A DNA stretch of 64,000 nt from Psammoneis japonica (taxonomy: Eukaryota). This document shows positions 3,392-51,800 of this stretch, piece by piece. The first letter of the stretch is position 1, and each line of letters starts with the position of its first letter. Location of the stretch: contig QPGO01000082.1 of assembly GCA_008632985.1 (NCBI GenBank), forward strand, positions 186,001 through 250,000, in the 5' to 3' direction. Below the pieces are notes generated by a model. It made no database searches. It saw only the letters and a program-made list of their open reading frames with translations, and was not told the origin of the DNA. The position numbers and the translations under genes were made by a program.

Positions 3392-3824
3392 AGTCTAGCA
3401 AGCAACCGAATAAAGAGTAAGGTTCTGTGATTGCTATTAGCGAAGTGGCGAAGTCTCTTGGTCGATTATCCTCACAAGGGGTTCAGCCAGTGATGTTTTT
3501 GCGACGATGAAAGCATTTCTCGGCGTTGAGTGCGTGTTGGAACGAAGAACTGGCCGGTGCTTGTCGCGTGTGACTGGTACTGATGGCTACGTAGATTCCA
3601 CTTTCGGAAGTGCGTACTCAGAATCGGCGACGGATGCGATGACGTAAGCTTGTCCTCGAGGAATTCTACGTAACATACAATTTATTTAGAAATTAAATGA
3701 TGAAGCTTAAGATGAAAATCTGACGTGGCATATGATGTCATGTTGGCGTGCCCATTTCTCCGCAGGGCAATGGGCGAGCACCATCGGAAAAATCACTGCT
3801 CCTCATTGGTTGTCTCGTTCTATG

Positions 3825-15900: not shown

Positions 15901-16175
15901 TGCCCTTCCCAGTATGACATTGACTTTGTTGGCGTTGTAAGACAATGCGTTCGAGATTGATTGGGGAACAACTTCTGGAGAACAAATCTGGAATCCAGAA
16001 AATCAAAAAATCGTTCTACCTGGTCATTATCTTAGCAAATTCCAAAGTCTGCAGACTCTAACCTTTACGTCGTATGTCATCATTGAACCTACAACATAAG
16101 CGCCTCGGCTAGCTAATAGTGGCACGTCATGCCTAATGATCAGTAAAGTATGACACTGTCGGATATCATGCAGAG

Positions 16176-18484: not shown

Positions 18485-18559
18485 AACAGAAGGTGTTTTG
18501 CCGTTTCATGTTGAGGTATACCTGCTGCGAATTTCAAACTTCCTTTAATGAAAAGACTA

Positions 18560-25524: not shown

Positions 25525-27029
25525 AATGAATCCTTTTAGAACTGCGCTTGCCAGTAAAACAGCCTTGACGCTCTCGATCACAACCGCCACGCCGCTCAAC
25601 GGTCGGAATGTCGGGGCGGGATCGATGCGCGGAATGCGCGAAAGTTCACAGTCAAAGTCATGCGCAGTCGCACGGTGACGACACGTCCAAAAGTTCAAGA
25701 CAATGACACGACGGCAAACAATGCAGGAAGCAATGCCTTACGTTTGCGCAAGACAGGGTAGATCAACACGGGGATTCCTTGAGCTGTTCAATTGAAAAAG
25801 GTGGAGCAAGAGGAGGAATTACTTTAGCTCTGCTTTTGGTGTTGAAGGAACAACTTCAGGAGCCGCTCTCTCATTGTGCAAAGAGTCGAGCACGTGCTCT
25901 TGCTTGTTCTCTTCTGTGTGTCAAAGCATGCAGCCAGCAGAGGCCATCACAGCAGGAACAGAAAGCAGGTGTGTCCAGACACGGTGTGACAATCCCAAGG
26001 AGGACGAGGTGACAACACAAAATGTTGGTGGGTTGAAGCAAGAACAAGTGGGGAGGGGGGGGGGCAGCCTGGCCGCATCATGACGGGGCCACCAAGAGCA
26101 CTCTGTGAGGGGGTCTTCTTGCCCCCTCTCAGCCCAAATTCAGAACAAGACAAGTGGCAACAAACAAGAAACAGGATTGCCAATGTTCCACGTCAGCAGC
26201 AATGACAACAACAACAAGACATTTTTTTGTGCCCCACCCCCTTGAGTTGTGTGTGAGCGAGGAATCCCACGCAATGCTCCCAAACAGCCACGAGCTCCCC
26301 ACCCAGGCAGAAAGGCAAGACAGACAAGAACAAAAACAAAGAAACAGACCAGCAACACATGAATGGAGTGTGGTTGTTGTCACAAAACCTTCAGTGGGTG
26401 GACAGACTGCCAGGTGAATCCACACAATTTGAGTCAAAATGCAGAAAAGCAGTGCAGCAGGCACGTTCCAGGTGCAGCAAAATTGTTGTGCAATTTTGGA
26501 CATTGCCAAAATCAGCCAGGTTTAAAACCAGTCAAAAGGGAGTCCTGTCATCATCAGGCTTCCCACTCCTTCCTCCCCCTTTTGATCTCCCACTTCAGCA
26601 GATGCGCGCCCAACATGCACTGCAGCAGAGGCGTGTGGGTCTTGAGTTAAAACACATTGGTTTGTCCTGAACCATTGATTCATCTCATCTGTTGCCACAT
26701 GGAAGTTCTCATCTGGGACTTCTTGTTTTCTCTTGGCCATCATGTCATTCAGTCTTCCAGGCTTGTCCCAGCAGTGCCACACAGCCACCGCTTCATTGTC
26801 GCGTCATGTGGCACATGGTGCTCATCATTGCTGGGCTTGTTCATGATCAGCAACATCATGGTCAACAACTGCACTAAAGAACACAATGTTGACAGGACAA
26901 ATTGTGACTGGTTGAACCTTGTGGCTCATGGCATCATGGCATCTTCCAGGCAACAGGGATCTTTCACCCACGTGCATCAGAGTTCTTGTCTGACATCACA
27001 AACAGGAAATGCTCCTGTCATGCTTGAAG

Positions 27030-28340
27030 TTGACAGTCCATGACAGCTTGTTTGAACATTTGAAACTTCTTGCCCTGCGGTGGCTCAGTCATTGAGTCTC
27101 TCCAAGCCTGTCATTGGTTGGACAATGCCGCACTCTGAGATTGCCCTTCTCAATCTGATCATCGGCAAAGAAAGGCCAAACATTGAGTGCTCTGGACTGC
27201 CTTCTGGCACTCCTGTGCCCATCTGTTTCCAACAGGCATGGTGCTTTTGTTGTTCCAGCAAAGGATGTTCTTGTCAATCAGAATTTCCTTGATGCCCCAT
27301 GAGCACTTTCATTTGCAGTGTCATGGTCATCGCTTGCGTCATTGACTCCTGAAAGCTCAGCCTCTGTGCTGCTTTGTGTGTTGAGCTTCTGGCATTTTGA
27401 TGCAGCCTGTGCTGCTCCATTGCCCATGGTCACAATTCCTCCTGTGTGGCTCTTCAAGTCAAGACGTGTGCCATCAATGATGCATCCACATGCCACTTGA
27501 TTGCTCAAAGGTCCTTTGCACTCAATGCAGTGAATTTGTTTTGTGCCCAGCTCAGGCACTTGGTGCAATCAACTGGGCTTCCCTGCTCTTGTTGGCTGGC
27601 TCTTTGACTCATGTGCACAGTGCTGCAACAGTGGGCACACATCCACACAGCCTCTCTTGGACATGAATTGTCCCTTGGACACCCATGCATGGAATTTCTT
27701 TGCTTTGTTGGCTGGAAATCTTGTGCTGCCGGTGTCAAACAGGTTCTCCCCAGCTGGCATTGTGGCTGCATCTGCACTCTTGATCTCTTCCATGAACTGT
27801 CAAACCATGTTGTGAACAGTGTCAGCCATGTTGACCTTTGCCTTCCCCTTGTGGCTGAAGTCCAGGGTCATGCCAAGGCAGTCTCATGCTTCTTCCCTTG
27901 TGTCATGACTTCACCATGGCTTTCACACATCTTGTTTGGCCACCTTAAAAAATTTTGGCATTTGCTTTTGGGTTCATGTGGCTTGCCAACAGGTTGTTCA
28001 CATGGAAATGTGGGGTGTCCTGCTTGCTGTCAACTGTTCAATTGGCAATGCATGGGTCACAGCCACGGGTTGAACTTGAACCCAATTTTCTCCAAGTCCT
28101 TGCAAAACTGCTTGCATCACAGCCATGTGCTCAGCTCTGATGACTTGGATGCAGAGGACTCTCTTCCCCTCTCCATTGTGACCACATGTGGTCCACACAG
28201 GTTGGAATCAATGCTCACTGGCATGATGACCAACACTCCTGCAATCTTCATCATGATCTGGTCTTCACCCTCCTGAGGCTTTGGAGTCAACATCTGCACA
28301 AATGCAGTTGGCACATCTGCACAAACGCAGCTGGCACAGT
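27030..28340 (-). pseudogene. Ty1/Copia RT-RNase H relic (diatom CoDi-like)
   Basis: ADVPTAFVQ...MKIAGVLV...LCGPHVV; GKRVLCIQVIRA; LEKIGFKFNP; TMPAGENLF; DLKSHTGG..TMGNGA..SKCQKLNTQSSTEAEL; RALNVWPFF..DQIEKGNLRVRHCPT; PQGKKF. Confidence 0.9.
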
Positions 28341-28399
28341 GGGTCCAATGACATGTGGACATGGCATCCTCAACTTGTCCCTGGAGATCCTTGCATCAT

Positions 28400-29400
28400 C
28401 CAACCACTGTTGTTGCAGCTGAGGTTGCAAATGTGGGTGCATGTCAGCCAAAAAGCCCCCCTGGCATCTTCAGATGTGTGCTGCAGCAGCTTGTCTGACT
28501 TGGTTTGTTGATGAAAGTTTTCAGCTGTGATGTGCATTTTCTGCACTTGCTTGCAGTGTGATCCACTGGTGATGAAAATTAAAAGCCACAAATCACTGCC
28601 CACAGAAAGAGCACAAATGTTGTTCCTCCTGAAAAGGCCACCATCTCAGATCAGGCCATCCTCCTCTGCAAACTCCTCATGATGTGAGTGAGAGAATGTT
28701 GGCATTGTTTTCCAGTGAGAGCAAACATGATGGAAGCTTGATGGAGGTGGGAAAAAAGAGCATCAAAAGAAGAAGATCAAAAGTTGAGGCCATGTTGGGA
28801 CAGTTCATCAACAAGCTGGCACACCAAGTCTGTCACATCCTTGACACAAGTCTTTTCCATTGTCATGTTTGCCATTCTGGCACCCATGCTTGCTGGGGGC
28901 ATTTGATGCTGAGCCACTGCAGTGGGTCATGTGTCTGTCAACCAATGTGCAGCCCAGGCACTCAAAGAGCAAGCTGTGGCATTGGAAATGCTCCCATGGT
29001 GGTGGCATGTTGTGGAGGCATTCATGGAGTGCAAGCATTGGTGCACAAAGGCAAGCAGCATCAACCATGAAATTGTTGCAGTGGCCCACACAGACTTGCC
29101 AGCAAGTTTTGGACTTGATGTTGATTTGGACACTTCTCCCCTTGCATGTGTCATGTCTGCTTGGCAGGTGACTGTGTCAAAGCAAAATGAATTGCAGGAC
29201 AACTGCTTGAGCTTGTGGAGGAAGCTCCAGTTTTAGGAATTTGTCAAGGCAGACTGTTTTGCAGTGGAAGCCTTGCAGAGGGTGGTGGCATGGGTGGTTT
29301 GTTTGGGATGAGAGCAAAGCTGATGATGATGGGCTGCAGCTTGCAGGTCCTTGGCAGAGGTCTTGTGCTGGAGCTTTCACTGCTGGACAGGTTCAAATGC
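28400..29400 (-). pseudogene. Highly degenerate coding relic, possibly a piggyBac-like transposase
   Basis: Fragments CKGRSVQINIKSK, HNMPPP and GVPAC loosely recall piggyBac-type transposases; very eroded. Confidence 0.25.
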
Positions 29401-30169
29401 ATGTGTCACATGGGTTGTTTTTGAGAAGGGCACTGTGGTGAGACCAGATCTTGACATCCTTCATGGTGCCCCAAGCACTCGGTCAAAATTCTCATTGGGA
29501 CAACTGCAACCCCCAAGAAGGATGTTCTCAAATGTTGTGTGAACATGTGGTGTTGTCAAATGCAAAATCCATTTTGAAGCTTGGATTTCTGCTGGCATTT
29601 GTGGAGGCAATCACAAACCTGTTAGAAGACAGGGTGGCTGTTCATGACATCAGAGATGAAGATGACAATGAACAAGTCCCTCCAGGGGAGGTAATGCATG
29701 ATTTGCTGCAACACAGTTGCAATGGCACCAGGTGGGGGGATGGATTTTGTCCAGTGGAAGTGGGCCATGCATGTTGCTGTTGTTCTGAGCATTTTGCTGT
29801 GGGGCATTGTTGTTGTCATGTTTGCAACAGACATGTCATGTGGCTGTTGCAAGCTGCAGCAGCAGCAGCTGCCAAACTTTTTTCTGATGCACTCATGTCA
29901 GCATGCAATGTTCAGCAATGAGGACAATCATTTTTTTGTGCATTTTTCCATTTGTCAAGGTTGGCATTCACAAAAGAACACAAAAGAAATGCAACCTCCA
30001 GAATTTGCCACAGATTTGACCAGCACCAAAAGTCATGCTGGAAACATGCCAATGTCAAAAAGCACTTTGCCTGGAGATGGAACACGCCTGCTGGCACTTC
30101 TGCTGATGAACTTGAAGCTGGGGTTAAGAACTCATCAGGTGTCTCCTGCAATGAAAACAACATTGTGCA

Positions 30170-31140
30170 ACCTTCTTGTGCAATGAGGGTGAAGTTGGAA
30201 ACTTTCCAGGGATCAAGATTGAGAAGCTTTCTGATGGAAAATTTTTGCTGTCACAACAATGTTTGATCAATGAGGTTTTGTGCATCACGCAAATGGAAGA
30301 CTGCAAAGCAACTCTGACACCTGCTGCTCCCAAGGCAGCCATTCTTGGTGCAAAAACTGATGGACTTCTGTTTGGTGATGAACTGTGGGAATGTCAACAA
30401 ACAGCAGGAGTGGCGCCAACATGCAACTCCTTGTGGGCAACAGGAGCTGGCCAGACATTGCCTCTGTGATGGTGTGTCAAGCAGCAAGGTTCTCCTGTGC
30501 ACCTCAAGCTTCTTGAGCACTTGCTGTCAAGTGCATTTGGCAATGCCTTGGGGCTGCTTTGGATGAGAGTCTCATTTTGAAGCCAGCTGACAACAACTGA
30601 GTGTGGATTGGCTTGTGAGCTGAGCACTTTTTGGCATCAAAAATTCCCAAGACTTTGGCTTCTGTTGTGTCACACACAGGGTGTCTTTCTGCTGTGCAGG
30701 ATGTCTGATTTTCTGGGTCTCCAAGCTTCAATCTCTTGTCGCCATCTCTGCCATGGAAGAAGCCAAACATGTTGCATTGTCTTGGGCCACACAATGAATG
30801 AATTCCTGTGCTGAATGAAATCTTCAAGGAGATGAGAGTGCACACATGTTCAACATGCCTGAACTTCTTGACAAGATCATGATGCATTCCAGTCAAGGCA
30901 TTTGAACTTGCCAGTCAAGGCTCTGAAGATGTGAGTGTTGCTGTTCACAATGGCCTCCACTCCATCTGCTCCTGTGTGGTGTGGTGATGACTCCAAATGA
31001 AAGTGGAAAGCCTGGAAATTGACATTCAACCCATTGTCACTGCCGAGCAACCAGCTGATCAATTTGCCCTGAACTGTTCCAGATCGCTGGGAAGGCTCTC
31101 ATGGGCTGGCAATTTCTCTCTTCATTGGTTGAGAGGGAGA
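30170..31140 (+). pseudogene. Second Ty1/Copia RT-RNase H relic with polypurine tract
   Basis: EGEVGNFPGIKIEK..F.LSQ..LINEVL..MEDCK..TPA; LILKPAD; SHTGC..CAGCLIFWVSKLQS..AISAMEEAKHVAL; TAEQPADQF; LMGW at 31098-31109, then a purine tract GAGAGGGAGA at 31131-31140. Confidence 0.85.
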
Positions 31141-31613
31141 GTCACGATTTACTCACGTTTGACTTTGCTGTCAAAACATGACTCAAAATGTCTCACTGAA
31201 CTCCACAATTTGAACCGTCTCTGATCTGAAACTCACTTTTCCATTGATCTCGATCACTTTTGAATCTCCACAACGACGCCATTTTCAGAATCACATCATT
31301 GTCAACATTCGTTTTATTCTTCTTCGCTGTTGCTTTTAGACAACCTCCTGTCGAGGACTGCTCTTTCCAGCCCAAGCCGGAGTGCACACTCAAGCAGGCT
31401 ACCAAGACGCCACAACTGGCAAGTGATGTTGGATGGAGGAGGTGCCGTGAGAATTGAATGCATTGTGATGCGGTGTGAAGAGGCGCATGTCCGGGTTGTT
31501 AGGTTGACTTTGGGAGGAACATGATAGCGTGAGTGAAAGTGCTAAAGAGAGACGAATGAATACAATCTACTAGTTTATGATATTGGTGAGTAACTACATC
31601 AGCTCCAAGCTAT

Positions 31614-33794: not shown

Positions 33795-35174
33795 GTCAAG
33801 TGACGGTCAAGAAGAAATGAGAAGACCAAGAACAAGATCAGTAGGAGTTTTTGAGACATGTGGTGTCTACAGTCTACAGTACATGATGTTACCAAGCAAG
33901 GATAAATGTGCAGTATTAGTTTATTCGTTGTTAATATGACACGCATTGTTCTTCAGCTTCTTATCATACATCAATGTTCAGGTCTTATTGGTGCCTGTGC
34001 ATGCAGCACATGTTGTCGCTCTTTGGCACTCGGTGCCTTCAACCGTGCAATCGAGAGCAACCCTGCATTCCTAAGTTTACCGCATTTCTTGCATCTAAAA
34101 GTACGTTAGGAACCCCATGTGGAGACCAGTGGTCTAGGTCTACCGGCACTTGTATGGGGAAGTTCATCCAAGCTGTCCCTCTTTTTTCCTCGAGCTTTTC
34201 CACAGCCCGACGGAGGTTGGCCGACAAATTCTTTCGCTCATGGTCCATTGTTTGGAGCATTGTCCATTCTGATGGTGTGTGGTTCTCATCACTGCTGTTG
34301 CGGCATGAGCGCAAGGTTTGCTGTTTGTTGTTTGTTTGCCAGCAGTGCTGTGGGGCAACTTGTGAGTGATGTTTGCTTCTCCTTCAGATGGAGTTCCTTC
34401 CCAGCAAATGATGCCCCCCGTGAGGACAACAACGACGACCAGCGCATCGCACACAATGTGGCACCCATCACTCTCATCGCACAATCTTTGAACAGCATTG
34501 AGAAGATGAGAATGAGATGTCAAGGAATTGGAACATTGTGGAGCATGTGGTGCTCTTGTTGTTGTTGGTTTGACGGTTGCCAGTGCAACTCAACCTCCTC
34601 GTGCAAGGAAAAATTTTTGCACTGCCAACCTTGACAACGATGCGGCCGATGGGAGACAGTCACCAAGGAACTGCTGTCCAAGGGAGTTTGCCCTTGACAG
34701 ATTGAGAAAATTCCTGGAGTGTGCAGGACAAACTTGATGGCTGGAAGAATGTTTGCACAACAATGTGCCACAACTTGCTTGTGTGCAAGCAACACAGTGT
34801 GCGCTTTCATGGCACCTGGCCAGCAGGAAGTTTCAGATGACTGACTCTCAGTGTTTGGCATGTCATTGAGTGCTCAGGCAACAATGCCAGCACTGTGCTG
34901 AGGCAAGGACACAAGTCCTGAGGTGAGGATGACCAATTGCTGAGCCTTGTGCCAGAGCACTGAGCTGGTCGAGGATGAAACTTTGGCACAACCAAGCTTT
35001 CCACTGCAGTGCAGCATGCAGCCTTGGCCACTGCAGAACATGGTCATAGAGTGGCATGCTCTGTGTGCATGTTTGTGTTGTTTGTCAAGCAATTTGAATT
35101 TGTGCATTTCCATGTGTGTGTGAAGAATGTGGAGCTGCAATGCCAGTGGAAAAAGGTGCCACTCGATTGCAGCA

Positions 35175-36060
35175 CCAATTCCTGCCATCCACCATCCAGC
35201 AACTGCCACTCAGCATCCACCATCCACCATCCAGCATTGCCCCACCATCCAGCATCTGCTGTCTGCCAGGTTTTTTTCACCATCTGTCCAGCATGTGCCT
35301 GCTGCCATCCACCATTCAGTGCATGCCATCCACCATTCACCACCCAGCATCTGCCGCCGAGCATCTGCCACCCACTGCCCACATCCTGCCATCCACCACC
35401 ATCCACCAACCAGCACCAGCACCCAGCATCAACCACCCACCATCCAGCTTCCAGCATCCACCATCAAGCATCTCCAGCATCCAGCATCTGCCATCAAGGA
35501 TCTTCCATCCAACATCCAACATCTGCCATCCACCATCCATTGTCCACCATTTGCCAGCCACCATCCACCACCCACCATCTGCCATTTAGCACCCAGCACT
35601 CTCCCTTCAGCATCCATCATGGACCATCCAGCACCCAGCATCTGCCGTCACCCGCAACACCCAGCACCCAACATCCACCAAGGTGAGACATGAGAGAAAT
35701 GATGTGTTGCACCATTTTTGCATGACAGGTGTGCACTGAAAAATGAGAAAACTGTTTTGTGCACTTCAGTCTCAAGTGACAGTGTGACATCATCACCACA
35801 AAAAAACACCACCACATTGATGTCATCCATGCCGCAGCCACACAACAACACATGTCAAAAACAAATTGGAGATCTCTGTTGAGACCACATTGGCTGATGC
35901 CAGATGGTGGATTTTGGATGGTGGACAGTGGATGGCTGGTGGTGGGTGGTGCAGGATGGGCTGCTGGCTTGTGGGTGGTGGATGGCAGATGGTGGATGGT
36001 GGATGCTGGGTGCTGGGCAGCACATGGTGGACAGCAGATGGTGGATGCTGGTTGGGGGGA
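35175..36060. repeat. Low-complexity (CCAT/CCAC/CCAG/GCAT)n tract 35175-35680 and inverted (ATGG/GTGG/CTGG)n tract 35895-36060
   Basis: Directly visible; the two tracts are reverse-complement in composition. Confidence 0.85.
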
Positions 36061-37229
36061 GTCTTTTCACCTGTTGCTGCACCAAAATGACTGTTGAGTT
36101 GACAAAACAAAAATTGGCAACAAAGTTGCTCCCAACACAAAATGTGGAACCAGGAGTGAGCAACAAAACAATGGCAGAGCAGTTGAGCAGCAAAGGCAGG
36201 AAAAATTGTCACAGCAAAGCAGGAGCAGGCTGGAAGGTTGCTCAGGATGACAGCATGTCCAGAGCACACCAACATCAACAGCAGTTGCACATCAACAGAA
36301 TTTTTGCCAAATGTGCTGAGCAATGTCAAGTCACTCTCTTACAGCTCTTTGTTTGCAACTCCAATTAGCAGCAGATTGGGCAGCCATGCAATGATGTGAG
36401 ATCTGCCAGGTTCAGCATGTCTGGCAAATGAAAAGCTTTCACATCATTCATGTGCTTTGTGCAAACTTTCTCATTGGCCAGCATCATGTTTGCTTGTGCC
36501 GTTGTAAAGTTCAAAATGAAAATGATGTCAAAATGTTTGAGATTGTGTCAATGGAAAAACAGACAAGATTTGACAGATCATCAAGGCTGAGATTTTGGTG
36601 TGGTGCACTCATTGATGTGCTCAACACATTTGGGCAAAGCACTCAGAGTTCAGAGTCAATGCTCTCTTTTCTGGCATGTGTCATTTGCATTGTTGTAAAC
36701 TCCTCATGCACAGCATTTGCTTGTCAGAGTGCCAGCAGCTTTTTCCAACTGCCAGTCTGCTGCAGACAGAAAAAACTGCAAAAAAGACTTTTGCAGACAA
36801 AGGCAGGTGACACAGAGGCTGTTGTTGTTGTTGGAGCTTTCACATCACAGGTGTTGCAAGGCACCTGGACATGTTGAAGGGAAGAAACTCCAACTCCTGA
36901 TGCAATTTGCTGAGTGACTCTTTGTGAGAAGAGTTTCACCACAATCAACCCCTCACCTTTGACTTTCATCTCACTCTTTGGAGTTGGTTGTTTGGTTTGC
37001 AATTTGGCACACAGGTGCCTGTAATTTTGCAAGTTTGCAGCTCAAATTGATGACTTTTGGTGACCCATTGCCAAAAAAGATTGCCAAGACAAGTGCATCA
37101 AGTGGCACAGGAAGCCCAGTGGGGTTTCCTTTAGGGAAGATTGACTTGCCAGCTCAACATTCACTCCAAAGAGTTGCTGGCACTGTGCTCAGTGCTTGCA
37201 AACATCGGCCCATGTGCAGACAACCAAGC

Positions 37230-37755
37230 ACTGAATGCCTGCACATTGCACAGCAGAGGAGGAGGTGGAACAAGCAGCAGAGGCTGAAGCTGAAGCTTTG
37301 GCAGCAGGAAAGGTGACAAGAGTCACAGGTCCTGCACTGAGAAATGACTTTCAGCCTGAAATGAAATTTCATCCTTTGTCACTGAACAGCAATGCTCACA
37401 ATGATGCTGTGCACAAAGACATCAAGAAGAAGATCATCTGTTGCATGCAAAAGGGGTGTGAACAAGGCATGCACATCATGGGGTCTTTAGAAGACATGAA
37501 ATGGTGCAAGGATCATGGCTCTGAAAAAAAAACACCTTGAGAGTGTCAATGGGGGCAGCACCTGAGGTGACAGAAGTGGGATGCCAGGATGTGCTGCAGA
37601 AGAAATGGCTCAAAGACAAGGAGCTGGAACATGAGCACAAAGCAGAGCCAAGTGACTGCTGCAACAAAGCAAAGCAGTTTGAAGAGGACAACAAGACAAC
37701 TGCATTTGCCAAGATGGCAGACAACTGCTGCACCAAGCAAATCAAGTGCAGGGCA
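37230..37755 (+). pseudogene. Copia gag-like relic
   Basis: KIICCMQKGCEQGMHIMGSLED and ELEHEHKAEPSDCCNKAKQFEEDNKTTAFAKMADNCCTK resemble the N-terminal region of diatom Copia polyproteins with Tyr replaced by Cys/His. Confidence 0.5.
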
Positions 37756-37909
37756 GTTCCACCCTTTGCACTTGACTCAATGAGGGGTCAACGTCTGTTC
37801 TGCCACAGTTGTCCCACTGGCATCAGGGACAATCTGACCAAGTTGCTGAAACCAATCCAATCTCTTGCACTCATCTCAATGAGAGGTCAACATCTGTTCC
37901 ATGCACTTG

Positions 37910-40900
37910 CCAGCACAAACACCTGAGAATGATTGGGATTGTTTCTGTGCGCATCAATGCACGAAAACAAAAAGCAAGCACATTCTCTGGCGTGAGCACC
38001 ACTCTGGACAAGAGTTTGCACACACGGCAAGTGTGTCTCTCGCTGGTGGGTGTGAAAAGAAGACATCAATGTCAGTGACATCTGTGGCATCAATTGCAAA
38101 TGCTTCTGCCGCTTGTCACTTGCGCAAGTCTCGCGCAGTTTTTCCAGCACAGTGCCACACGCAAAAGAGCAGAAACAAACAACAGGCGCAGCCAGGCGAA
38201 CCAAGCAATGACATGCATGACGATGCTTCAAAAGTTGCAAAAGCAAGTGATGGCTGGCATTCATCAACTGCATTGCTTGCTGTGATTCTCCCACTCTCTG
38301 CTGCAGTGCTGGTGTCAGCAGCTGGGCTTCAGGCCCCAATGACAGAGAATCCAAAGCACAGTGAGACAAGCAGCGATGATCGAGAAATCAAAACAATGCC
38401 GAGAGAGAAAGCATCTTTCTTGCAGATGGCAATCAACTTGCCAAAAATGCAGAGATGTCCACAATTTGCAGCAGAGAGGGAGATCACTTGGTGTGAGTGC
38501 CGTGCACTCTGGTTGACAAATGTGACTGTGCTTTGAATGATGGCTTTTGTCTTGGGCCGGCATGCCGTGAGGTGCGTCTTCAGTTTCTGCAACTTGCTGA
38601 CACTCGTCACCACAAAGTGTTCACCCATGACGACAACCCTGATTGATGAGGTGCAAGTCGTTCAGCGGTCTTTCTCTGCAGATCCAAATGCACAGAAAGA
38701 ATAAAAAAATCAGACACCACTCTGTTCAGTGCCGTTCATCGACATCATTGCGCAATGTGGCTTTTCTTGTCGCTGGCAATGACGTGGTGACCATTTCGCA
38801 GTGAATGAGGCACAACGCATGACATCTCCCCTCCACGTGTTGTCTTCATCCAATCTGACATCATTGTCGGTGAAAACACAATTGACAGAGTGTGAGACAA
38901 ATGGCAACTGAAATGACAAAACAATGCCAAGAGTGAAATGGTGCATTGCTTGCCAATGATGCAAACACAGCATTCCACAATGCACTGGTGGCTGACAGAT
39001 AGAGAGATCATGCTGTTCAATGCCACACGTTCTCACCAGCCACCACAGACCAGCAACTCTGGCAGAAGAGGATGTCTCTCTGCATCAAGCCACCAAAAGG
39101 AATTGTTGCCATGCCCACAGTCCATTGTGTTGCCACATTGCCTGCACACAACACTGATCTTCAAAACCAAAGAGTCCAAATGCCAACACACAGTGAACAG
39201 CATGCTGAGACTCAACCACAGTTGTTTTGCCTTGTCTGTCAACAAGGTGTGACACATGACATCTCCCATTGGCTTGATCTGAAGAAAAGAATAAGAGCAC
39301 AAGAGAACAATGTGAGCAAAGAATGGAACACTGGAGTGACAACAAAAGCTCAAAAGGGCACACATTCAATGCCCACCAGATGCAATGTGATCATTTAGAC
39401 GACAATCCACAAAACAGAAAATGGATGCCATGAGAACTGGGTTGTCACTTCTTGTGTCATTTCAGAGTCTTGCAAATGTGGCAGCTTGACCACTGCAGCA
39501 CTGCTTCAGCAAATCAGATTGATGGAGGAACACAGCAAATTGTCACAGCCAGCACAAGTGCACCAGATTGGCAACCCCAAGGCTGAAGGAGGACAGGCAA
39601 CACACATCTGATTGATGCTTCTGCTGTTCGCAGAAATTTTTACAAAACAATCCAAATCCTGCCTTCCTCCCTTGTGCTTCCTTGGCTTGCTTGCTTCCCC
39701 ACAAGCAAAAAACTGGTCTGTCCTCTGCCTTTTGGCATCTCTGTAAAAGTCAATTTTGTTTCCAAAATCAATGGGTTTTTCAACAGGCAATGCTTCTGGC
39801 ATCTTCTGACATTGTCAACTGACGTGCTTTTGTGCCAGTGTTTGTCAGTTTCATGGTTCTGAACGCCATTGCCACTGTTCAGATGCTTCTGCTGTTGGCA
39901 GAAATTTTTGTGAAACAAACAAAATCCTGCCTTCCTCCCTTGTGCTTCCTTGGCTTGCTCGCTTCCCCACAAGCAAAAAACCAGTCTGTCCTCTGCCTTT
40001 TGGCATCTCTGCAAAAGTTGATTTTGTTTCCAAAATCAATGGGTTTTTCACCATGCAATGCTCTTGCATCTTCTGACATTGTCGGTGACATGCTCTTGTG
40101 CCCATGTTCACCAGTTTCACACCAGCTCTGAATGCCATTGCCACTGTTGCAAGAAGGGCCTTTTTTTGCTCCAAGAGGACAGACCGGTCATCATCAGAAT
40201 TCTGTGTGGCAATGCACTGAGAAATTTACAAAGTTTTTTTTTTGCCTCCGACCTCAATTGCTTGGCCATTGTCTCTCACTGCGGCAGCATGGCAAGTTCA
40301 CAATGCACACTCTTGTCAAACAATGTGGGCCCACAAGCTCTCATTCATTGTTGTTTTGCCTTGTTGCTCACATTTTGTGTGCATGCATTTGTCTCGAATT
40401 GGAAATGGACAACTTAAAAAACGTTCATCAATGAGGATGATCAATGACACAAAATCTCTGTAAATTCTCAAATGACTGTTTTTTCTTAGAAAATGGTGAT
40501 GTGCTGCTTTTGCCCCCCCCCAATTGTGCCATGATGCAACACTCTTTTATCCGCTGTTTTCACAAAGTGCTCTGTTGACCTTCTGACTGATGCCAGCAGA
40601 GGCAGTTTGCACGTCAAACAATGGGGGCCACTCTTAAAGTGATTTGCAAAGTTTGCTCTTGCAAGAGGACAGACCAGTTGGAAGAGAACAGACTGGTTTT
40701 TTGCTTGCACCACAGCACCAAGTTTTCTGTGTTCTTCTGCCACCCTGGACCACAGCCACGTGCACATGAAATAAAAAGCACCAACGCCAAATCAAGATGG
40801 AGAGCAATGATGCGTGACAGATGCGCACAAGGAAAAAAAGATCATTTGCACGCACATGCCTGCAGCACATTCTCAAACATGGGTGGCGCAACTTTTAAGG

Positions 40901-43900
40901 CATCGTGCAAAGACTTGCGTGCTGCACAGAGGATTTGCGCAGGGCAGTGCAAATTAGATGCCAGAGGCTGTGCAGAAAAAATGCAAAATCACTGCACTCA
41001 TGCTCAACCAAAACCGGTGGCAAAATTTCCGTCAGTGGTGTGGTGAATCCTGCGGAAATTCTTGAACAGATTTTGCCGGGACTCAACATGAAGCACAACT
41101 CAGAGGAGCTGGATGATGATGACACATCTTTGCAAGACCAACAAACCACACATGCATGAAAAGATCATTGAGAGCAGATGTGTCAAACTGCATCTCACAC
41201 CCACGTGTCCAGGGACATCACTCTTTAAAATCTGACGCCTTCCAATTTGTGGTTTGGGGGAAATCTGATGACATCTTCAGACAGGTTGGTGCAAGATGCA
41301 GTTTGACCCTCCAAACCTTCTTCCCCCACATGTGCTTGAGACACTTTGACACCCATTTCTTTGTGACACTTGACATGTTGACAAGACAGTCGCCACTGAA
41401 AATGTTTGCTCCACTCAGTCCACTCAATGCAGAATTGATGCTGCAGTCTGCAGCCCATGAGCAACAGCACTCAAGTCTTTGTGTGATGCCTCAATGCAAC
41501 CCCAAAGCACCGCATGTCAGTTTTGGCAAAAGAGTCCAAGAACACTGCTCCAAATGGTGATTCAATCAGGTGTTGCATGTGGCAGCACAAGACAAGCCAA
41601 GTGGCAGCCTTCTGTTGGTCCGTGTGCGCCATCGAGTGCTTCTCTTCAGCAGTCACGGCATTCTAGATTGCTGGATGAGGGAGCGCATCACATTGTAGAT
41701 GCTTGTGCAAAACAATGCAAAGGGCAGCCAAGATCTTGCTGGACAAACCGGTCTTCCAACTTGAGATTGCAAAAAGGAACAGAAGCAATGGATTCTCCAT
41801 TGCACAACCAACGATCTTAGAAAGATGATTGGTGATCAAGTTGCAGCTTGATTCTGCCAAATCACAACAGAGTTGCGCAATGGATTCTTTGCACATCATG
41901 CACTCAAACGGCGCTGGTGGATTCTTGCGCTGTTGCAGGCCAAATTCCAACATCAACAACCAAATCATTTTTTTTGGGTCCCAGGTTTTCCCATGGCAGT
42001 CTTGCAACAACTTGACAAAAAAAATGTTGAAAGTCACTCAATCCCTCAGCTTTGTCAAAAGCATCAATGAAATTCCGGCAAACCACTTGCATCTCTGCAT
42101 CAAAATTGGCGCTGGTGCAATCAAGATTGACCATGACACAAAATTGGTCATCTTGCCTGACATCTTTTGAAAGGTTGCGGTGGTTGTGCATGTTGCCACT
42201 TGCCCCAATCATTTTCAGTGCATCGTTTTGAATGCCACAAACACCAGGGCTGTTGGTGACAGCTCGGGTGGCATTTGGTCTGAACAGCGCCTGTCTGGAT
42301 GCTCAACAACATGGTGTTTTTGAGCAAGCACTGCCATGGCTTCACAGTGCAGCTTGGCAGTTTCTTGGGCCACGTTGGAGCCAAACATTGGCATGATCAA
42401 TTGCTTGTAGAACTTCTTTTCATTGTGTGGCATCTCATTGCCAGGGTGCAGCTGTCAGGCTCATTGTTCATGCCAATTTCATGGATCTTTTGCCAGTCGT
42501 CAATCCCACCTGCTCAGTCACAGACAGTCTGTCCTTGCACTGCCAGTTTTTTGTCGGCATCACAACATTTCATCTTGTCAAACACAACATGATGTTACAT
42601 TGTTGTTTGCATTGAGACACAGCCAAATGCACCGCAAAGCCCAAATGAAGTGAGCAAAAATCAGCAACACCCGTGCACCAGTCAGACAGTGTCCAAATCT
42701 CTAAAACTCTGCCACAGAAGCAGGGCATGTGGAGGCACCACATGTCTTGAGGCAGTGCTTCTTGAGGCAGGTGCTTTTGAAGTTTTGGCGACTCACTTGC
42801 GCTCTTCATGACAAAGCATTGACCTGTGACAACAACCCCAGACTGACGAGGTGCAAGTTGTTCGGCGGCCTTTCTCTGCAGATCAGAAATGCAACAAGCA
42901 ACAAAAAATCAGACACCACCTTGATGGGAAAGATTGTCACAATCTTCGACACGTGGCACTTCAGCCAAAGCAACATTCTTGGAGGATTGAATTGGAATGT
43001 CATCAACACGTGCAGCACTTTGGTCAGAGTGGCGTTCTTGGAGGATGGACTTGGACCAGAAGCACTGACAGTCTGTCATGCCGGCATTTGGCAGAGTTGT
43101 TGTGATGTGATGTGCACTTTGCAAGTTGCTGGTGACAACATTTTGGAGCTGCTGTTCATGCAGCGCCACATTGATTTGCACCCTGTTTGGCATTTTGCAG
43201 CAGAAGGGCCAGCATGCATCACAAATGAAGTGCTCAAAAAAGGGCATGGCAATGATGCTGCATGTCTTTCTGTTTGTCATGGGCACCTCACACTGTTTGC
43301 TTTTGTTTGTGTTTTGTGCACATGCCATTGCTTGCATGTTGATGTGCCAGAGAGCTGGCAGAGTGGGGCCCTGCAGCCGGGGCCTCTGCGTGCAGTGCAC
43401 AGGCTCAGAGCCTGTGCTGCGCACGAGTGATGTGGTGCCGTCAAAATTTGAAAATTTGACTTTGAAAGCACAAACACCTGAGAATGATTGGGATTGTTTC
43501 TGTGCGCATCAACGCGCGAAAACAAAAAGCAAGCACATTCTCTGGCATGAGCACCACTCTGGACGAGAGTTTGCACACGGCAAGTGTGTCTCTCGCTGGT
43601 GGGTGGTGGGTGTGAAATGAAGACATCAATGTGTCAGTGACGTGCGTGGCATTAATTGCAAATGCTTCTGCCGCTCGTCACTTGCACAAGTCTCATGCAG
43701 TTTTTTCAGCACAGTGCCACACGCAAAAGAGCAGAAACAAACAGCAGGCGAATCAAAGCAATGACATGCATGACGATGCTTCAAAAGTTGCAAAAGCACA
43801 CCCGCCTAAAAGTGATGTTTGCATTTGCGAGGATCAATCAAATGTCTGCAGTATGGTCCACTTCTCTACAGCAGAGTCTGCAACACCCCACTGTGCTGCA

Positions 43901-46530
43901 GCACCTTTTTCAATTCACGAGGATCAACCAAACACAAGCTCAACAACCAAATGGAGCTTCTTTCCCAGCACGGCAACTTTCACTCCAATCAAAGAAGTCA
44001 CACTCAGCTTTGGCAATCACTGAACACAAATTGACACAACACACATCCGTTCGCAACTCCACCCTGCATTCCACCCACAGTGACTCTGACCTTGCGTCTC
44101 TTGTCCCTCTTGCATTTCACCTTCTTGATGTCCAAATGAGGACGCCGCTCGCAAGTGACAGAATTGGCATTTCCCTTGAACGTTCGGCAAGACTGGCTGC
44201 CGCACCAGCCATGGCACGGGGACTGAAAAAGGTGCCAATGGTCTTTTGTCCTTTGTCAAGAGGCTTGTGTTGCTTGGGAGGCATGGTGATGTGACACATT
44301 TGGCTGCAGTGCAAATCACGTGCGAATCCTTTGGCATCACAACAGCAAACGACGAATGTTCAGAAGTGCATCAGAAACAAAAGAGTTCAGCACGAACAAC
44401 AATGTGATTGAATGCTCACTGTGTCGAATGACAGCAATTGGCGCACAGCCACCAATGCCGAGCCGAGTGCAGTGCATGCGTGTTGTTGCAATTCGTTCAT
44501 TCTTCAGGGCTGAACGATGTCGAACCAACAATCAACAAGGAACAAAACAGTCAATGAGCAACACATTTTATAAACAGGAAATTGAAGAGTGGCATTGTGT
44601 CGATTCAATGCTCACCTGGTGATAACGCTGCGGGTGTGACACTGTCACGAGGAGTCTCTTGACGTCCGATGCACCTTTGTGTGCCGATGGAGTTGACTCC
44701 ATCAACATCGTTGAAACGATCAGCACGATGGCAAACCAAACACGAGAAGTGAGAATGCATTCAAAGTACAAACGACACAAGAAATTGACATGAACGGAGA
44801 TGAAGGCTCACCTTTCAAAGTGCACTCACAAAACAAAGCAGCTCGATGCGACAGTCGCCTTCTTTTCGTTGATTCTGAGATTGATGACCGCGGAATTCCG
44901 GCGCGCCAATTTCGTGGATCTTTTGCCACTCGTCAATCCCACTTGCTCAGTCACGGACAGTCTGTCCTCGCACTGCCGGTTTTTCGTCGGCATCACAACA
45001 TCATTTCATCTCGTCAAACACAACAAGATGTTACATTGTTGTTTGTGTTAAGACAGCCGAACGCAACGCAAAGCCCAAACAAATAAAATGAATGAAAAAT
45101 CAGCAACGCCCGTGTGTAAGTCGGACAGTGTCAAAATCTCTAAAACTCCGCCACAGAAGCAGGGCATGTAGAGGCACAGCATGTCTTGAGGCAGCACGTC
45201 TTGCGGCAGGTGCTTTTGCAGTTTCTGTCACTCGCTGACACTCGTCATGACAAAGTGTTGACCTGTGACGACAACCCTAGATTGATGAGGTGCGAGTCGT
45301 TCGGTGGCCTTTCTCTGCAGATCAGAAATGCAACAATCACAAAAGATCAGACACCGCCTTGATGGGAAAGATTGTCACAATCTTCAACACGCGGCGCTTC
45401 AGTCGGAGCAGCATTCTTGGAGGATGGACTTGGAATGTCATCAACACGCGCATCACTTCAGTCGGAGTGGTGATGTCAGAGGACAGACTTGTGCCAGCAT
45501 CATTGATTGTCTGAAAAAAGAAAAAGGAGTGCTTGTTAGATTCACAAAATTTGTTCGTCGTCCTCGTGATTCATCAGATGTTGCATGCTCACCACATTCA
45601 AAAAACAACAATGACACGTCAATCAAAGCAAGTGGCATGTCTCAAATCACATCAACACGCAGGCAATGACACATGTGCAAAACACAAACAAAGCAAATGG
45701 CACAAGATGCCCATGACAAACAGAAAGACACACAGCATCGTTGCCTTGCCATTTTTCGAGCGTTGCATTTGCAATGCACACCGGCGCTTCTGCTGCAAAA
45801 TGCAAATCAATGCTGCACATGCAGCAGCTCCAAAACGTTGTTACTTGCAACTTGTAAAGCGTGCATCGCATCATGACGACTCTGCCAAATGTGCCGAATG
45901 AAGAATGAAGAAGAGTCCAGGAGCAAGGCAAGAACCCAACGACGAATCGTGTCGAGACTCATCCACACACAGTGTGCATGATGTTTGTGGACCGGTGCAT
46001 GTTTTGATGTGCATTGATTTGTTGAGAGTTGAGGGCGAACTTGAGGTTTTTGGCCAAATTGACCAAGGGAAAGCAAGGAAGGCAGCAGTTTCTTGGATGG
46101 CACTCGCCAGCTCGCTCGCTTGTGCGCGGCTTGCTCGCTCGAACAGATTTCGAATCATCATCAAGCCCCGCCAATGCACGCACGACGCACGTGCACACCA
46201 TCAGAATTTGTCTTGAAAAGCACAAACACCTGTGAATGAGCAGTGTCATGTCCACGCGCATCAACGTGCGAAAACAAACGCGCGCGCTCCATCCATGCGA
46301 GCCTTCACTCGGCGCACCAAGGCTGAGTGCAAACAATGGTGACAATGAGACAACCATGTCAGTGACATGCATGACTTTAAATGCAAATGCCACTACACCG
46401 TGTCACTTGCAGGAGTCTTGTGCATTTGTTTTAGCACAGTGCAGCGCAAAAGAGCAGTGACAAAGCGATGTCGAATCGACACATCGTGATGCTTCAAATC
46501 CTGCAAAAGCACAACCGCCTAAAAGTGAAT
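37910..46530. repeat. Dispersed segmental duplication, three partial copies (about 37910-38250 plus 38560-38720; 42470-43815; 44905-46530)
   Basis: Shared blocks such as tttctctgcagatc, gcacaaacacctg, gatgcttcaaa..tgcaaaagca, ccacagaagcagggcatgt. Confidence 0.85.
39613..40090. repeat. Tandem duplication, period 268 bp
   Basis: gatgcttctgctgtt...catcttctgacattgtc at about 39613-39820 and 39881-40088. Confidence 0.9.
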
Positions 46531-46602
46531 TCCGGCACAGGGACTCGAACCCTGGTATCCTGCGTGAGAGGCAAGTATGCTAACCACCTACATCATGCCG
46601 GA
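46530..46602 (-). tRNA. tRNA-Glu (CTC)
   Basis: Minus strand TCCGGCA-TG-ATGT-AGGTGGTTA-GCAT-A-CTTGC-CT[CTC]AC-GCAGG-ATAC-CAGGG-TTCGAGT-CCCTG-TGCCGGA-A folds as a complete cloverleaf; TTTT Pol III terminator just downstream (46524-46521). Confidence 0.95.
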
Positions 46603-48520
46603 CAGATGCTATGAAATGCGTTTCGTTGCTTTTTGAACATTTGCGCAATTGTTCGTCAATGCAAAATGGGTGTGCATGCAGGTCATTTGTGCAGCTTTCA
46701 CAGTCTGGAAAAGGGCAGCAAAGCACAGAACTGAAATGAACAACAATGTTAAAAGTGAGTGTCAAGAGAAAAGAACTCGAATGACCTCGCTCACTTGTTG
46801 GTGCTGCTCCACCACACCAGCGGCTCTCGAGCGGCGTGCTCGATTCTCAGGCGAAGCACAGAGCGACAATCCATTTTGAGCACAAATTGTGTGTTTCTCA
46901 TGTGTGGAGCATTTTCACAAAAAGGTGCTTGTGCAAATGGGCTTTTGTGGGTGTGCGTGCAGAATGTGGCTTTTTCTTTCGCGGAGCTCAAGCCATCGTA
47001 GAACACACGCCACAAATTTCCTTTGACACGCTGGCTGTGCGACAATGCACCCCCTCACAGGCAGAACACCCCACTGGAAACATTGTGGGCAGCTCTTTTG
47101 CATTGATGTCCAAACACTTAATTTGCACGAATCTTCAACACTTTTGCTGAAAATCACCTGCTGTCAACAACTTTGCAGCGCTGATGCAAGTCTTGTCAGT
47201 GTTTCAAAACATTGGCATTTTAACAAATCTCTGCTGTTGGTTGGTGGTCGATCGCAAGTTGGTGGGGGCCACATGAAAAACATGCAAATGTCATTTTTGT
47301 GCACAATTTGGTTCATGCACAACTGCTGAAACACATGGAGTTTCCCCCATTTGTCAGAGTGCAGAGTGTGAAAGATGTGGGACAACAAATTTTCTCCCTG
47401 CCAAGAGCAGATTGTGGGTTGTTGCTCACAAGAAGGTTCAACCTGCCAAGCTAGAACCTGGCTGTTCAAAACAACAAAAGCAAGTGATCTCTGCAAGCAC
47501 AAAGGAGGGTGCTAAAGCCAGCTGTGCAGCCTTGTTTTTGGAGCCAAACGCCAGGTGCTTTCCATGCTTTGCATTTTGAGGCAGCCACACAAGTGCACAA
47601 TTGAACTCCATGCATGCTGTGTGTGAAGTGTGCCGCATTGTTTGCACTTGCAAAAGGTTTTGAAATTGCCGACCAAAGCCATCCTCTGGAGCACAAATCC
47701 TTTCATGATGTTTTGTCTGTGGTGATGGCAAAGCAAACCATGAAAAAATTGCAACAAGAAGGTCAAGGTGCAAAAGCAATGCAGTGCTGAGTCAGCCTCC
47801 TGGTCTGCCATGAGTGCCGAGTCACTTGCCAAAATGGGGAAGAAAGCATTTTTTGGCGGCCTGGATTGTTGTGGCGCATGGCCACCCATTTGTTGGAGCT
47901 TGGTGATGCTGCCTTTTGCCTTCTGTGACTTCAAGGAAATGGGCACACATCAAGCAGCATTAACATCTTTCAGTTTCATCCTCTCTTCTTGGGCTTTGAC
48001 ACAAAAGAACAACCTGATTTGATTGTCAAAGCCAAACAACGCACAGCACGGGTTCTGTCAAACCTTTTGTTGGCACGGTGGTCAGAAAAGGCTTCAGTCA
48101 CCAGGCAAGGCACAGGCAAGTGTCAAAATTATATAACGGTTCGTTGGAATCATCTCATCTGAGGGCCGTCGGATCCATGCGCAATTCCAACTGTAGCACA
48201 ACAGACGCTGCAGAAGACATCTATATCATCAACAACCTCCCAAACGTAGTGTTCTTAAAACTGCAAAGCAGAGCACACACGGCATCTGGAAGGAACTTAT
48301 AAGACCAAGCAGTGAGTTTTATGCTTAACTAGAACTACAGTAGCTAGCGGTGTAGGCTTGCACTGGAGCGATGAACTTAGAAGAAAGCCCTGAATCGCCA
48401 CAAACTTCTTTGAAGAACGAGCTTACTTCTTGTAGTTCTGTTGGCAACAAAAGGACGAACAAAATTAGGAAAAACATAGAATGGGGATGACGATTGCAAA
48501 CGAATTATGGAGGCGCCAAC

Positions 48521-49766: not shown

Positions 49767-50039
49767 TTTGCCGTCTATCGATGAGAGAGATTTCCGAGTT
49801 GCGGATGGCCCTGCACGTACGACGACAACAACGCCGTGGGGTTAGATGATCATCCATCATCCCGTACTTTCCACCATGACGATAGTACGTCACGTTGCCG
49901 CTGACGACGCGGCGACGCGCGCGTTCAAACTTGAATTTTGAGGATATGCTTGAGTCGTGGTTTATTTGGTGGCGGGACTTTCGTTGTCGTACTACGTTTT
50001 CAACGTACCGCCCGGTAGGGCCCTACGGTACCCCGGTAT

Positions 50040-51165
50040 CACCCCTGTGGTAGGGGAGAATATGGTGATGTCATGGTTACGTGGCAGTTTATATCTTATT
50101 CATTATATTTTTATATAAATGTCCTTACATTTAAATGGTTACGTGGCAGTTTATATCTTATTCATTATATTTTTATATAAATGTCCTCACATTTATTTAT
50201 GCATTTGTACACAAATGCTAATAGTAGCAGGAAAAATCCTGAACCATATTCTCCCCTAAAACTCTAACCACCAAAAACCGGGTCGGAAGCGCACTTTTGG
50301 GAGCTCTTTTTCTCCGCACAAAAAACACGCGTTTCGTCGACTCGACCATGACGGGCCGAAACGCAGGTGCGGCGTTGGAATTCGTGACAGTATCTGTGGG
50401 AGGCGGTGGGGCGAGAATGAAAGAAGTGTGAGTTGTTGGCATTTCATTGTGGACGTCATTGGCAAAATACAATGACAGCATCAACAGCACCTGCGGCAGC
50501 AAGGGTGGGAGTAACAGCATCGGGCATGCTAGGGGGCCGAAACGCAGGTACGGCGTTGGAATTCGTGACAGCATCTGTGGGAGGCGGTGGGGCGAGAATG
50601 AAAGAAGTGTGAGTTGTTGGCATTTCATTGTGGACGCCGTTGGCAAAATGCAACAACAGCATCAACAGTGCCTGCGGCAGCAAAGGCAGGAGCAACAGTG
50701 TCGGGCATGCTAGGGGCCCGAAACGCAGGTGCGGCGTTGGAATTCGTGACAGCATCTGTGGGAGGCGGTGGAGCGTGCAAACAACAGTGTGAGTTTGCAG
50801 CATCTTATTTTGCACGTGTCACACCCACGAGAACCGGAATGATGACATTGCCTGTTGTGTCAGTGTCATTGGCAATGGTGTCAGTAGGATCGGCGTCCTG
50901 GGAAGGCGATGGGGAAGAACCACGAGGCATCATCATGGTCGAGTCGACGAAACGCGTGTTTTTTGTGCGGAGAAAAAGAGCTCCCGAAAGTGCGCTTCCG
51001 ACCCCTCGGTTTTTGGTGGTTAGAGTTTTAGGGGAGCTGTGGAATAGGAATTTTTACTTATGGAATATACACATTCGTGTGGATATTAACATTAAAACTC
51101 AACGCACGGCGAAGCCGTGCGCGCACAACCACGCACACACACACAGCTCCCCTACCACAGGGGTG
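50040..51165. mobile_element. Non-autonomous TIR DNA transposon (Mutator/Foldback-like), 1126 bp, 19-bp TIRs, 9-bp TSD
   Basis: TIR CACCCCTGTGGTAGGGGAG (50040-50058) is the exact reverse complement of 51147-51165. CCCCGGTAT is duplicated at 50031-50039 and 51166-51174. Internal 100-bp inverted repeats and 62-bp and 181-bp tandem repeats. Confidence 0.9.
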
Positions 51166-51800
51166 CCCCGGTATAGGAATGCTTCCATTCGTGAGACTCT
51201 ATGATACAGATAGATGGTATTACAGTATGTTGCTATGGTTACAAACCCTGGTGGGCCACGGTCAAACTCTAAAACAGCCCTCCGCCCGAAGTCAACGCTG
51301 GATTACAAACCTAGAAACTATTGTAAGTTGCACTCCATGTCAATTTCGCCTAAATGGATTTTGAATTGCCAATAAGTCTACGCAGTGTTTCTCATTTTGA
51401 AACTCGAGGCTGCGCGTAGGAAGCGCTACGCCATCTTGTGTAGGGCTTAGGGCACTAGAGTTTACTAGATCAAGCTGCCTCGGATACAATCGAGCAAAGT
51501 TTAAAATTCTCTTCCCAATAGTTCTCGCATAAGGTACGAACCGTGTTTAGAGCAGATGACGGCCCTAACTGACATGTAATTGACAGCAGCAGCGACAGCC
51601 TGCGCAAAGGCGTTCGGTTGGATTCAGTGGCGGCTGTCAAGTTGAAAACGTCAAGTTTCTTCGTCATACCTGCCGAATGCTCAATTTTTAAAAGCGAGAA
51701 TGCTTACTCTTTTCCTCGTCATATGACAAATCAAGCCGGCAGCGGTGGTAAATCTCATCTTTCCCACTGACGCGCACACACTATTTCCAAGCCTCATGCC

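Follow-up and report, generated by a model that had tools for sequence, protein, structure and literature searches.

Two adjacent 181-bp tandem units within a transposon differ from each other by transitions only, mostly at TA, TG and CA dinucleotides, and we consider a mutational process directed at TpA the probable main cause of these differences. The units lie in the 64,000-bp stretch of DNA analyzed here (the window), which also contains four blocks nearly devoid of TpA and, in one of the blocks, the remnant of a Copia-like retroelement that carries no tyrosine codon. The transposon and its parts, with their coordinates in the window, are:

50031..50039, no strand: left target-site duplication CCCCGGTAT; the same 9-mer occurs again at 51166-51174
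50040..51165, no strand: non-autonomous terminal inverted repeat (TIR) transposon of 1,126 bp (MITE-like), from a high-copy family
50040..50058, plus strand: left TIR, 19 bp, 100% complementary to 51147-51165
50073..50195, plus strand: 62-bp tandem, 2.0 copies (TRF)
50251..50351, plus strand: left arm of the inner inverted repeat, partner of 50933-51036
50353..50533, plus strand: tandem unit 1, 181 bp (TRF, unit alignment)
50534..50714, plus strand: tandem unit 2, 181 bp (TRF, unit alignment)
50715..50775, plus strand: partial tandem unit 3, degenerate onward to about 50817
50933..51036, minus strand: right arm of the inner inverted repeat
51147..51165, minus strand: right TIR
51166..51174, no strand: right target-site duplication CCCCGGTAT

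The element is a non-autonomous TIR transposon: it has perfect 19-bp TIRs and a 9-bp duplication of CCCCGGTAT, as the initial annotation of this DNA had noted, it exists in many copies, no transposase was found in it, and none of its five open reading frames (ORFs) matched Pfam (0/5). The 19-bp TIR word has two matches in the window, where 0 are expected. A 9-bp duplication would, we assume, suit the Mutator or Merlin superfamily. The arms of the inner inverted repeat (about 100 bp) pair over 72 nt at 99% and 30 nt at 100%, and their sole mismatch is a TG/CG pair. Variation among family members was read from the assembled contigs of one public sample (runs X1-X3 of one study, possibly the source sample), in which run X2 contributed a single matching contig and run X3 none. 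At a likeness of at least 80%, 973 contigs align to the studied stretch, and 176 family contigs fit two places in it. The summed contig depth is 1,113-18,614 over the element versus 39-62 over its flanks, a 20- to 340-fold difference that identifies a high-copy family. Furthermore, the other family copies part from this one exactly at 50040, where their contigs have loose ends.

One contig from run X1, the sole contig over the left flank, bridges both flanks without the element at single-copy depth, so the insertion is missing from that haplotype or strain. This contig joins 49992 to 51176 with 37 other letters in place of 49993-51175. Judged by eye, the 37 letters are a copy of the left-proximal flank that has diverged at TA/CA, CG/TG and CG/CA steps and has no CCCCGGTAT word. 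The contig is therefore not a clean empty site. Metagenome matches to the TIR (four loci, L001-L004) had only a 19-30 bp word in common with it and no partner TIR, and we set them aside as chance matches. None of the four has transposon features, and two of them are near-identical, GC-rich loci (63% GC).

TRF detects the 181-bp period in 2.3 copies across 50353-50775. Aligned without gaps, units 1 (50353-50533) and 2 (50534-50714) have 15 differing bases at 11 places, all of them transitions (15/15). The initial annotation had listed 11 differing sites, eight of them in the TA/TG/CA class, and every position it gave was right. Four of these eight keep TA in one unit (unit 1/unit 2: TG/TA at 50368/50549, TA/CA at 50391/50572, TA/TG at 50468/50649 and TA/CA at 50512/50693). 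The other four are swaps between TG and CA (50473/50654, 50488/50669, 50506/50687 and 50518/50699). The remaining three differences are T/C at 50456, CA/CG at 50457/50638 and G/A at 50503, and two of the 11 places fall outside pyrimidine-purine (YR) steps. YR steps hold 13 of the 15 differing bases versus 54% of positions (P=0.009). The reported retention of CpG also holds in the ungapped comparison: unit 2 keeps all ten CpGs of unit 1 and adds an 11th at 50638. Likewise, the TA 50126 / CA 50188 difference described for the neighboring 62-bp tandem is present, and its two units also differ at the last base. In simulations, four or more TG/CA swaps seldom arose from 15 random transitions (P=1.5e-5), and they stayed rare when the transitions were restricted to the variable final 78 bp (P=1.5e-4).

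The differences are unevenly spread along the unit, with two in the first 103 bp (50353-50455, which hold eight of the kept CpGs) versus 13 in the last 78 bp (50456-50533; Fisher P=0.0005). Possible causes are constraint, a recent conversion event between the units, or exposure that depends on position, the 181-bp period being near the nucleosome repeat length. The swaps at 50473, 50488, 50506 and 50518, as well as TG/CA places at 50840, 50849 and 50858, are spaced by multiples of three, and the swap region is made of CAN/TGN triplets that are Gln/His/Cys-like in one frame, with no frame open across the units. We considered a coding constraint behind the swaps, which lie 15, 18 and 12 bp apart and would encode Cys/His on the minus strand. 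We dropped it because 181 is not divisible by three, stops interrupt every frame, and CAN/TGN triplets bring the YR steps into the same phase. The 93-aa frame in which the swaps become Cys, His, Arg or Tyr had 0 relatives in a protein search. Small inversions or template switching were also dropped as a source of the TG/CA swaps, as the flanks are not palindromic.

We compared the unit differences with models of origin from TA or from CpG. In the TA model, each TA copy converts independently with probability q, and TA/TA : TA/x : TG/CA pairs follow (1-q)^2 : 2q(1-q) : q^2/2. The observed 1:4:4 fits this model with a single rate, q=0.76 (p=0.67). A single-rate CpG-origin model is rejected for the corresponding CG/CG : CG/x : TG/CA counts of 10:1:4 (p=0.0004) and also when only the last 78 bp of the units are considered (p=0.011-0.043). 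The same CpG-decay model fits all four of the old repeat pairs tested in the window (R1-R4, p=0.66-1.0). The proposed direction of change at the eight unit sites rests on this model fit, and the partial unit 3 opposes it at two of them. Units 1, 2 and 3 read G, A and G, respectively, at the set of 50369 and T, C and C at the set of 50391. TA is thus the minority state at both of the sites that unit 3 covers (2/2), which makes it derived by simple parsimony.

The transposon family varies at 130 places, 113 of them transitions, and 40 of the 130 are available in detail, apparently those with a share of at least 33%. These 40 include 36 transitions within the element, of which 34 fall in YR steps (P=7e-8) and 17 at positions where this copy has TA (P=2e-9). 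Similarly, among the 40 of 130 places, replacement in at least a third of the family depth affects 15 of 50 TAs versus six of 65 CpGs (Fisher P=0.007), and 15 places read TA in this copy but CA or TG in at least a third of the family depth, versus a single place with the reverse pattern. For example, the family reads CA (58%) or TG (41%) at 50512-3, where TA would retain roughly the depth of a single copy provided the two sets of contigs do not overlap, and CA (36%) or TG (58%) at 50885-6. Together with 50368-9 and 50391-2, these are the four TA-centered sites with three states in the family; the one CG-centered three-state site comes from a single contig. Four other places (50506-7, 50840-1, 50849-50 and 50858-9) are TG/CA dimorphic with almost no CG or TA, and both changes of each are carried by the same contigs.

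Three places in the family show a different pattern. The CA share reaches 95% at 50530, 80% at 50711 and 77% at 50549, with no TG share of at least 33% among the places listed, and this strong CA majority, where independent hits would be expected to yield about 1:1, suggests shared ancestry rather than repeated hits. The initial annotation had staked the ancestral TA on a family consensus that would read TA, not CG, TG or CA, and these three TA places, taken literally, contradict it. TA remains abundant in the AT-rich arms of this copy (observed/expected, o/e, 1.0-1.1). In the central region of the element, the excess of TG+CA (36) goes beyond the deficit of TA+CG (13), which indicates that the region was partly CA/TG-rich by origin.

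Depletion of TpA is far more complete elsewhere in the window, in the following blocks:

3821..7627, no strand: TA-free, CpG-poor, CA/TG-rich block, the presumed end state of the same process
13941..15716, no strand: TA-free block
25825..31150, no strand: TA-free block with a Copia-like pol remnant
27020..28050, minus strand: Ty1/Copia-type remnant of the pol C-terminus, with the end of the reverse transcriptase (RT) and RNase H (phmmer, tblastn)
34153..47961, no strand: largest TA-free block, with internal repeats R1-R6

The four blocks have sharp edges and sum to approximately 25,250 of 64,000 bp (about 40% of the window). They have the clustered TpA depletion and the CpA and TpG enrichment of TpA-targeted hypermutation. 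Inside them the o/e ratios are 0.05 for TpA, 0.29 for CpG, 1.85 for CA and 1.77 for TG (0.81-1.27 for the other 12 dinucleotides), versus 0.59 for TpA, 0.97 for CpG and 1.14 for CA/TG in the rest of the window. The GC content is the same in both. The longest TA-free gap of the window spans 1,217 bp; the block at 13941..15716 has zero TA in 1,216 bp, and the block at 3821..7627 has TA-free gaps of up to 841 bp, with TpA o/e of 0.03-0.08 and CpG o/e of 0.11-0.31 in 2-kb bins. In all 12 of the 2-kb bins that lie fully within blocks, TpA o/e is 0.03-0.12, while CpG ranges from 0.03 to 0.85. We estimate that TpA this low needs an exit rate from TA that exceeds entry through ordinary G>A and C>T changes by tens of times.

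The gain of TG+CA in the blocks was weighed against the loss of TA+CG. Excess and deficit are 96.0 and 99.8, respectively, at 13941..15716, and 208.5 versus 183.3 and 189.9 versus 174.4 in two further blocks; at 44-46 kb, the fourth block tested, the excess is larger than the deficit (133.4 vs 79.5). The TG and CA products are in about equal excess in the blocks, and a runs test found no strand-coordinated runs of TG or CA (z -0.03 to -1.97). Hits therefore look independent, per site and on either strand. The repeats of the window have TpA/ApT ratios of 0.03-0.15 and (CA+TG)/(AC+GT) ratios of 1.56-2.21. In one repeat pair (44905-45513 vs 42472-43075), 20 CpGs are kept by one copy only and five by the other only; both copies are already TA-free, and TA loss came before CpG loss. 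Six-frame translations of the blocks contain 0.10% Tyr versus 2.21% elsewhere, with abundant Cys, His, Gln and Trp. Pfam returned 0 matches for 100 block ORFs, apart from two at chance level, and 0 for six long block frames read through TGA.

The Copia-like remnant reveals the direction of change. A phmmer search with its frame returned 1,190 related proteins (E<=0.001; best 1.1e-34), including many polyproteins 1,100-1,800 residues long, and tblastn with 59 long homologues confined the matches to 27020..28050, the C-terminal part of pol alone. No LTR pair was found around the block, no upstream pol was detected at the remnant, and Pfam misses (0 matches) what phmmer picks up. The minus-strand frame of the 25.8-31.2 kb block comprises 1,658 codons (TGA translated as X), none of which encodes Tyr; the pooled Tyr content of 133 homologues of normal Tyr content is 3.2%. 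None of the six columns with a Tyr consensus keeps Tyr in the remnant (two now read TGC and CAT), and the YCPT motif has become HCPT. Columns with an Arg consensus retain Arg only as AGR codons, and four of the five replaced Arg columns read TGT, TGG or CAG (the fifth, GAG). We also examined the 72 conserved codons of the remnant that differ from the consensus of the 59 long homologues. Reverting TG/CA to TA restores seven of the 72, a modest effect (null 3.1, P=0.03), reverting TG/CA to CG restores nine (null 2.2, P<0.0005), and either reversion restores 17 (null 5.5). At the level of the block, Tyr loss and codon reversions thus indicate that TG/CA replaced TA in this genome and that CpG was lost too. 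Some Copia-type homologues in the public protein library (P0278, P0268, P0288 and P0244) are Tyr-poor (0.2-1.3%) and rich in Cys and His, so comparable erosion may be present in further data sets.

These results bear differently on the broader claims of the initial annotation. Its view that TA was ancestral and was hit independently on either strand agrees with the TA-origin fit, the blocks and the Tyr loss, but not with unit 3. That TA is lost faster than CpG is consistent with blocks in which TpA is always nearly gone and CpG variable, as far as rates can be deduced from sequence. The CpGs described as untouched are so between units 1 and 2 but not in the family and the genome, which both display CpG change.

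We propose that the tandem, in what appears to be a young, mobile and non-coding transposon of a diatom-lineage alga, is exposed to a process aimed at TpA that would produce TpG when one strand is hit and CpA when the other strand is hit. Deamination of the A in TpA to inosine would yield exactly these products, and a deaminating enzyme is the presumed agent. Each TA of each copy would be hit separately; an ancestral TA pair would therefore end as TA/TG, TA/CA or TG/CA, all of them visible, or as the same product in both units, which is invisible. On this model, about three quarters of the TA copies in units 1 and 2 may already be converted. Methyl-CpG decay (CG to TG/CA) would be a second, slower process that has worn the older repeats and barely touched this copy. 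Both processes would end in the 25 kb of TA-free, CpG-poor, CA/TG-doubled blocks, one of them a dead Copia-like retroelement. The process may be targeted to foreign or silenced DNA. A Copia-like pol remnant lies in one of the blocks, the other blocks gave 0 Pfam matches, and the element under study is itself a transposon. The unit differences may have arisen in place or in a master copy of the element. More tentatively, and inclining toward doubt, we suggest a genome defense of the diatom lineage that chemically erases TpA and CpG, the two self-complementary YR steps, from silenced or invading DNA and still acts on a mobile MITE family, with TpA hypermutation being old and widespread in SAR.

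Methyl-CpG decay could alone have produced the differences if the swap places were once CpGs that were lost on different strands and TA arose later through C>T or G>A at CA or TG. Such a history would resemble the other repeats of the window, where 27 TG/CA swaps are accompanied by 27 CG/TG and 33 CG/CA differences and by just nine that bear TA, where three-copy alignments have five CA/CG/TG sites and 0 CA/TA/TG sites, and where one rate fits the old repeats. It would also suit the polarity of unit 3 (TA derived at 2/2 sites) and the CG>CA or CG>TG changes that the family carries at six CpGs of this copy (among 40 of the 130 variable places). Furthermore, diatoms methylate their transposons at CG, with DNMT5a described as maintaining this methylation (Hoguin et al. 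2023, PMC9998398). We nevertheless regard CpG decay alone as unlikely. The ten kept, one half-lost and four fully lost CpGs that it requires of the units are incompatible with one rate (p=0.0004), and no CpG of this copy is replaced in more than 54% of the family depth, yet the swap places are fully converted. Nor does it explain a TpA o/e of 0.05 in the blocks and the loss of every Tyr codon. A RIP-like process, perhaps via the diatom DNMT4, would reverse the direction of change, with duplicated DNA hit by C>T at CpA and TA as the product. The units are tandem duplicates, the excess of TA in this copy over CA/TG in the family (15 places against one, among 40 of 130) is what such a process would leave, and DNMT4 is reported to group with fungal RID and to have no known function (PMC9998398). 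However, RIP enriches TpA, and the old repeats here are almost TA-free; it cannot reach TG/CA swaps, and conserved Tyr codons were lost rather than gained. We thus judge a RIP-like origin extremely improbable.

Sequence artefacts are a further concern, since the blocks are known from the assembly alone. Modified bases at CpG or TpA could be miscalled during sequencing or polishing, with TG/CA as consensus errors, and random calling would also give TG and CA without strand runs, as seen in the runs test. We find this very unlikely, as contigs from an independent run (up to 315 kb, about 55x) contain the same TG/CA dimorphisms of the family and Illumina sequencing recorded a comparable process in a different alga (10.64898/2026.01.13.699255). 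The Copia-like remnant is also truly decayed, with TG/CA reversion mending just 17 of the 72 differing conserved codons. Ordinary neutral divergence of two old paralogous units in a master element would accommodate the clustering of differences in the last 78 bp of the unit and the CA/TG-rich composition of the central region. It has scarcely any probability in our view, given that all 15 unit differences are transitions, that four or more TG/CA swaps are so rarely met by chance (P=1.5e-5), and that transitions make up 113 of the 130 variable places of the family, with 34 of 36 in YR steps among the 40 places detailed.

The TpA-directed process that we favor looks like one described in the chlorarachniophyte Bigelowiella natans, here in a diatom-lineage genome and beside a slower CpG decay. 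Mutation-accumulation lines of B. natans gained 231 mutations in two hypermutable regions of integrated viral DNA, and 230 of these were A>G or T>C (10.64898/2026.01.13.699255). According to the available text of that preprint, all of these GC-biased mutations fell on TpA, which became TpG or CpA (Mettrop et al., 10.64898/2026.01.13.699255), at a rate of approximately 6e-7 per site per generation and with only some lines active. The B. natans genome also contains TpA-depleted clusters, enriched in CpA and TpG, that are linked to viral or transposon sequences, and the authors discuss adenosine deaminases with a 5'-U/T preference (TadA/ADAT2-3, ADAR) (10.64898/2026.01.13.699255). As in B. natans, the process proposed here would turn TpA into TpG or CpA depending on the strand, would be regional and would run against the usual GC>AT direction. 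The two differ in host lineage, with a diatom-lineage stramenopile here, and in the type of evidence, as the B. natans rate was measured in mutation-accumulation lines and the direction here is deduced from sequence. Depletion is reported to be mild in B. natans (rho TpA of 0.45 in an NCLDV insert, with a cluster cut-off of 0.43) versus 0.05 here. The targets here would include a Copia-like element and probably a MITE family, compared to viral regions in B. natans. CpG is also lost here, and the available text of the preprint mentions neither CpG nor diatoms.

Other known systems share part of this behavior. Methyl-CpG decay converts CG to TG/CA on either strand and is clearly acting in the old repeats of the window, but it does not remove TpA, and the CpG retention of the 181-bp units does not fit it. 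RIP also degrades repeated or foreign DNA through dinucleotide-specific transitions, but in the opposite direction, from CpA to TpA. Adenosine deaminases would have the right chemistry, as A>G after a 5' T gives TA>TG and, on the other strand, TA>CA; processive editing of single strands, however, predicts strand-coordinated runs, and none are seen here. In E. coli, CTAG is depleted through very-short-patch repair. There, a repair bias that guards methylated cytosines turns TA words into CA/TG words, a conversion like the one proposed here, but that system is bacterial, concerns one tetranucleotide and is far weaker, and we use it as an analogy only.

Mutation aimed at TpA against the GC>AT bias has been reported once so far, in the 2026 chlorarachniophyte preprint, and our literature search on diatoms and other stramenopiles retrieved nothing of this kind. 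If our interpretation is correct, a second major algal lineage has the process in a far more advanced form (about 40% of a 64-kb window), where it joins CpG decay and acts on ordinary transposons, not only on giant-virus inserts. It would also point to a DNA-editing defense not yet known. The dating, annotation and recognition of repeats would change accordingly, with Tyr-free pseudo-proteins rich in Cys, His, Gln and Trp escaping Pfam. On the more tentative suggestion of a genome defense, TpA hypermutation would be common to Rhizaria and stramenopiles and not peculiar to a single chlorarachniophyte. Dead elements would end up without TA, and thus without any Tyr codon and any TAA or TAG stop, and TA-free blocks, which can be read from any assembly, would provide a clock for the age of silencing.

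The host is an intron-poor eukaryote that we treat as a diatom-lineage alga, and its genes in the window encode a long homologue of RelA/SpoT, a proteasome ATPase, Tdp1 and a bZIP protein. Among named sequences, those closest to the ATPase (85-91% identity) come from diatoms and bolidophytes (Proboscia, Leptocylindrus, Aulacoseira, Corethron and Triparma). The RelA/SpoT homologue has 63-65% identity to a record labeled Rhodomonas lens and to one from Ditylum. In addition, a single ORF on the plus strand (54916-57186) combines a PfkB-type sugar kinase domain with a xylose-isomerase-like TIM barrel.
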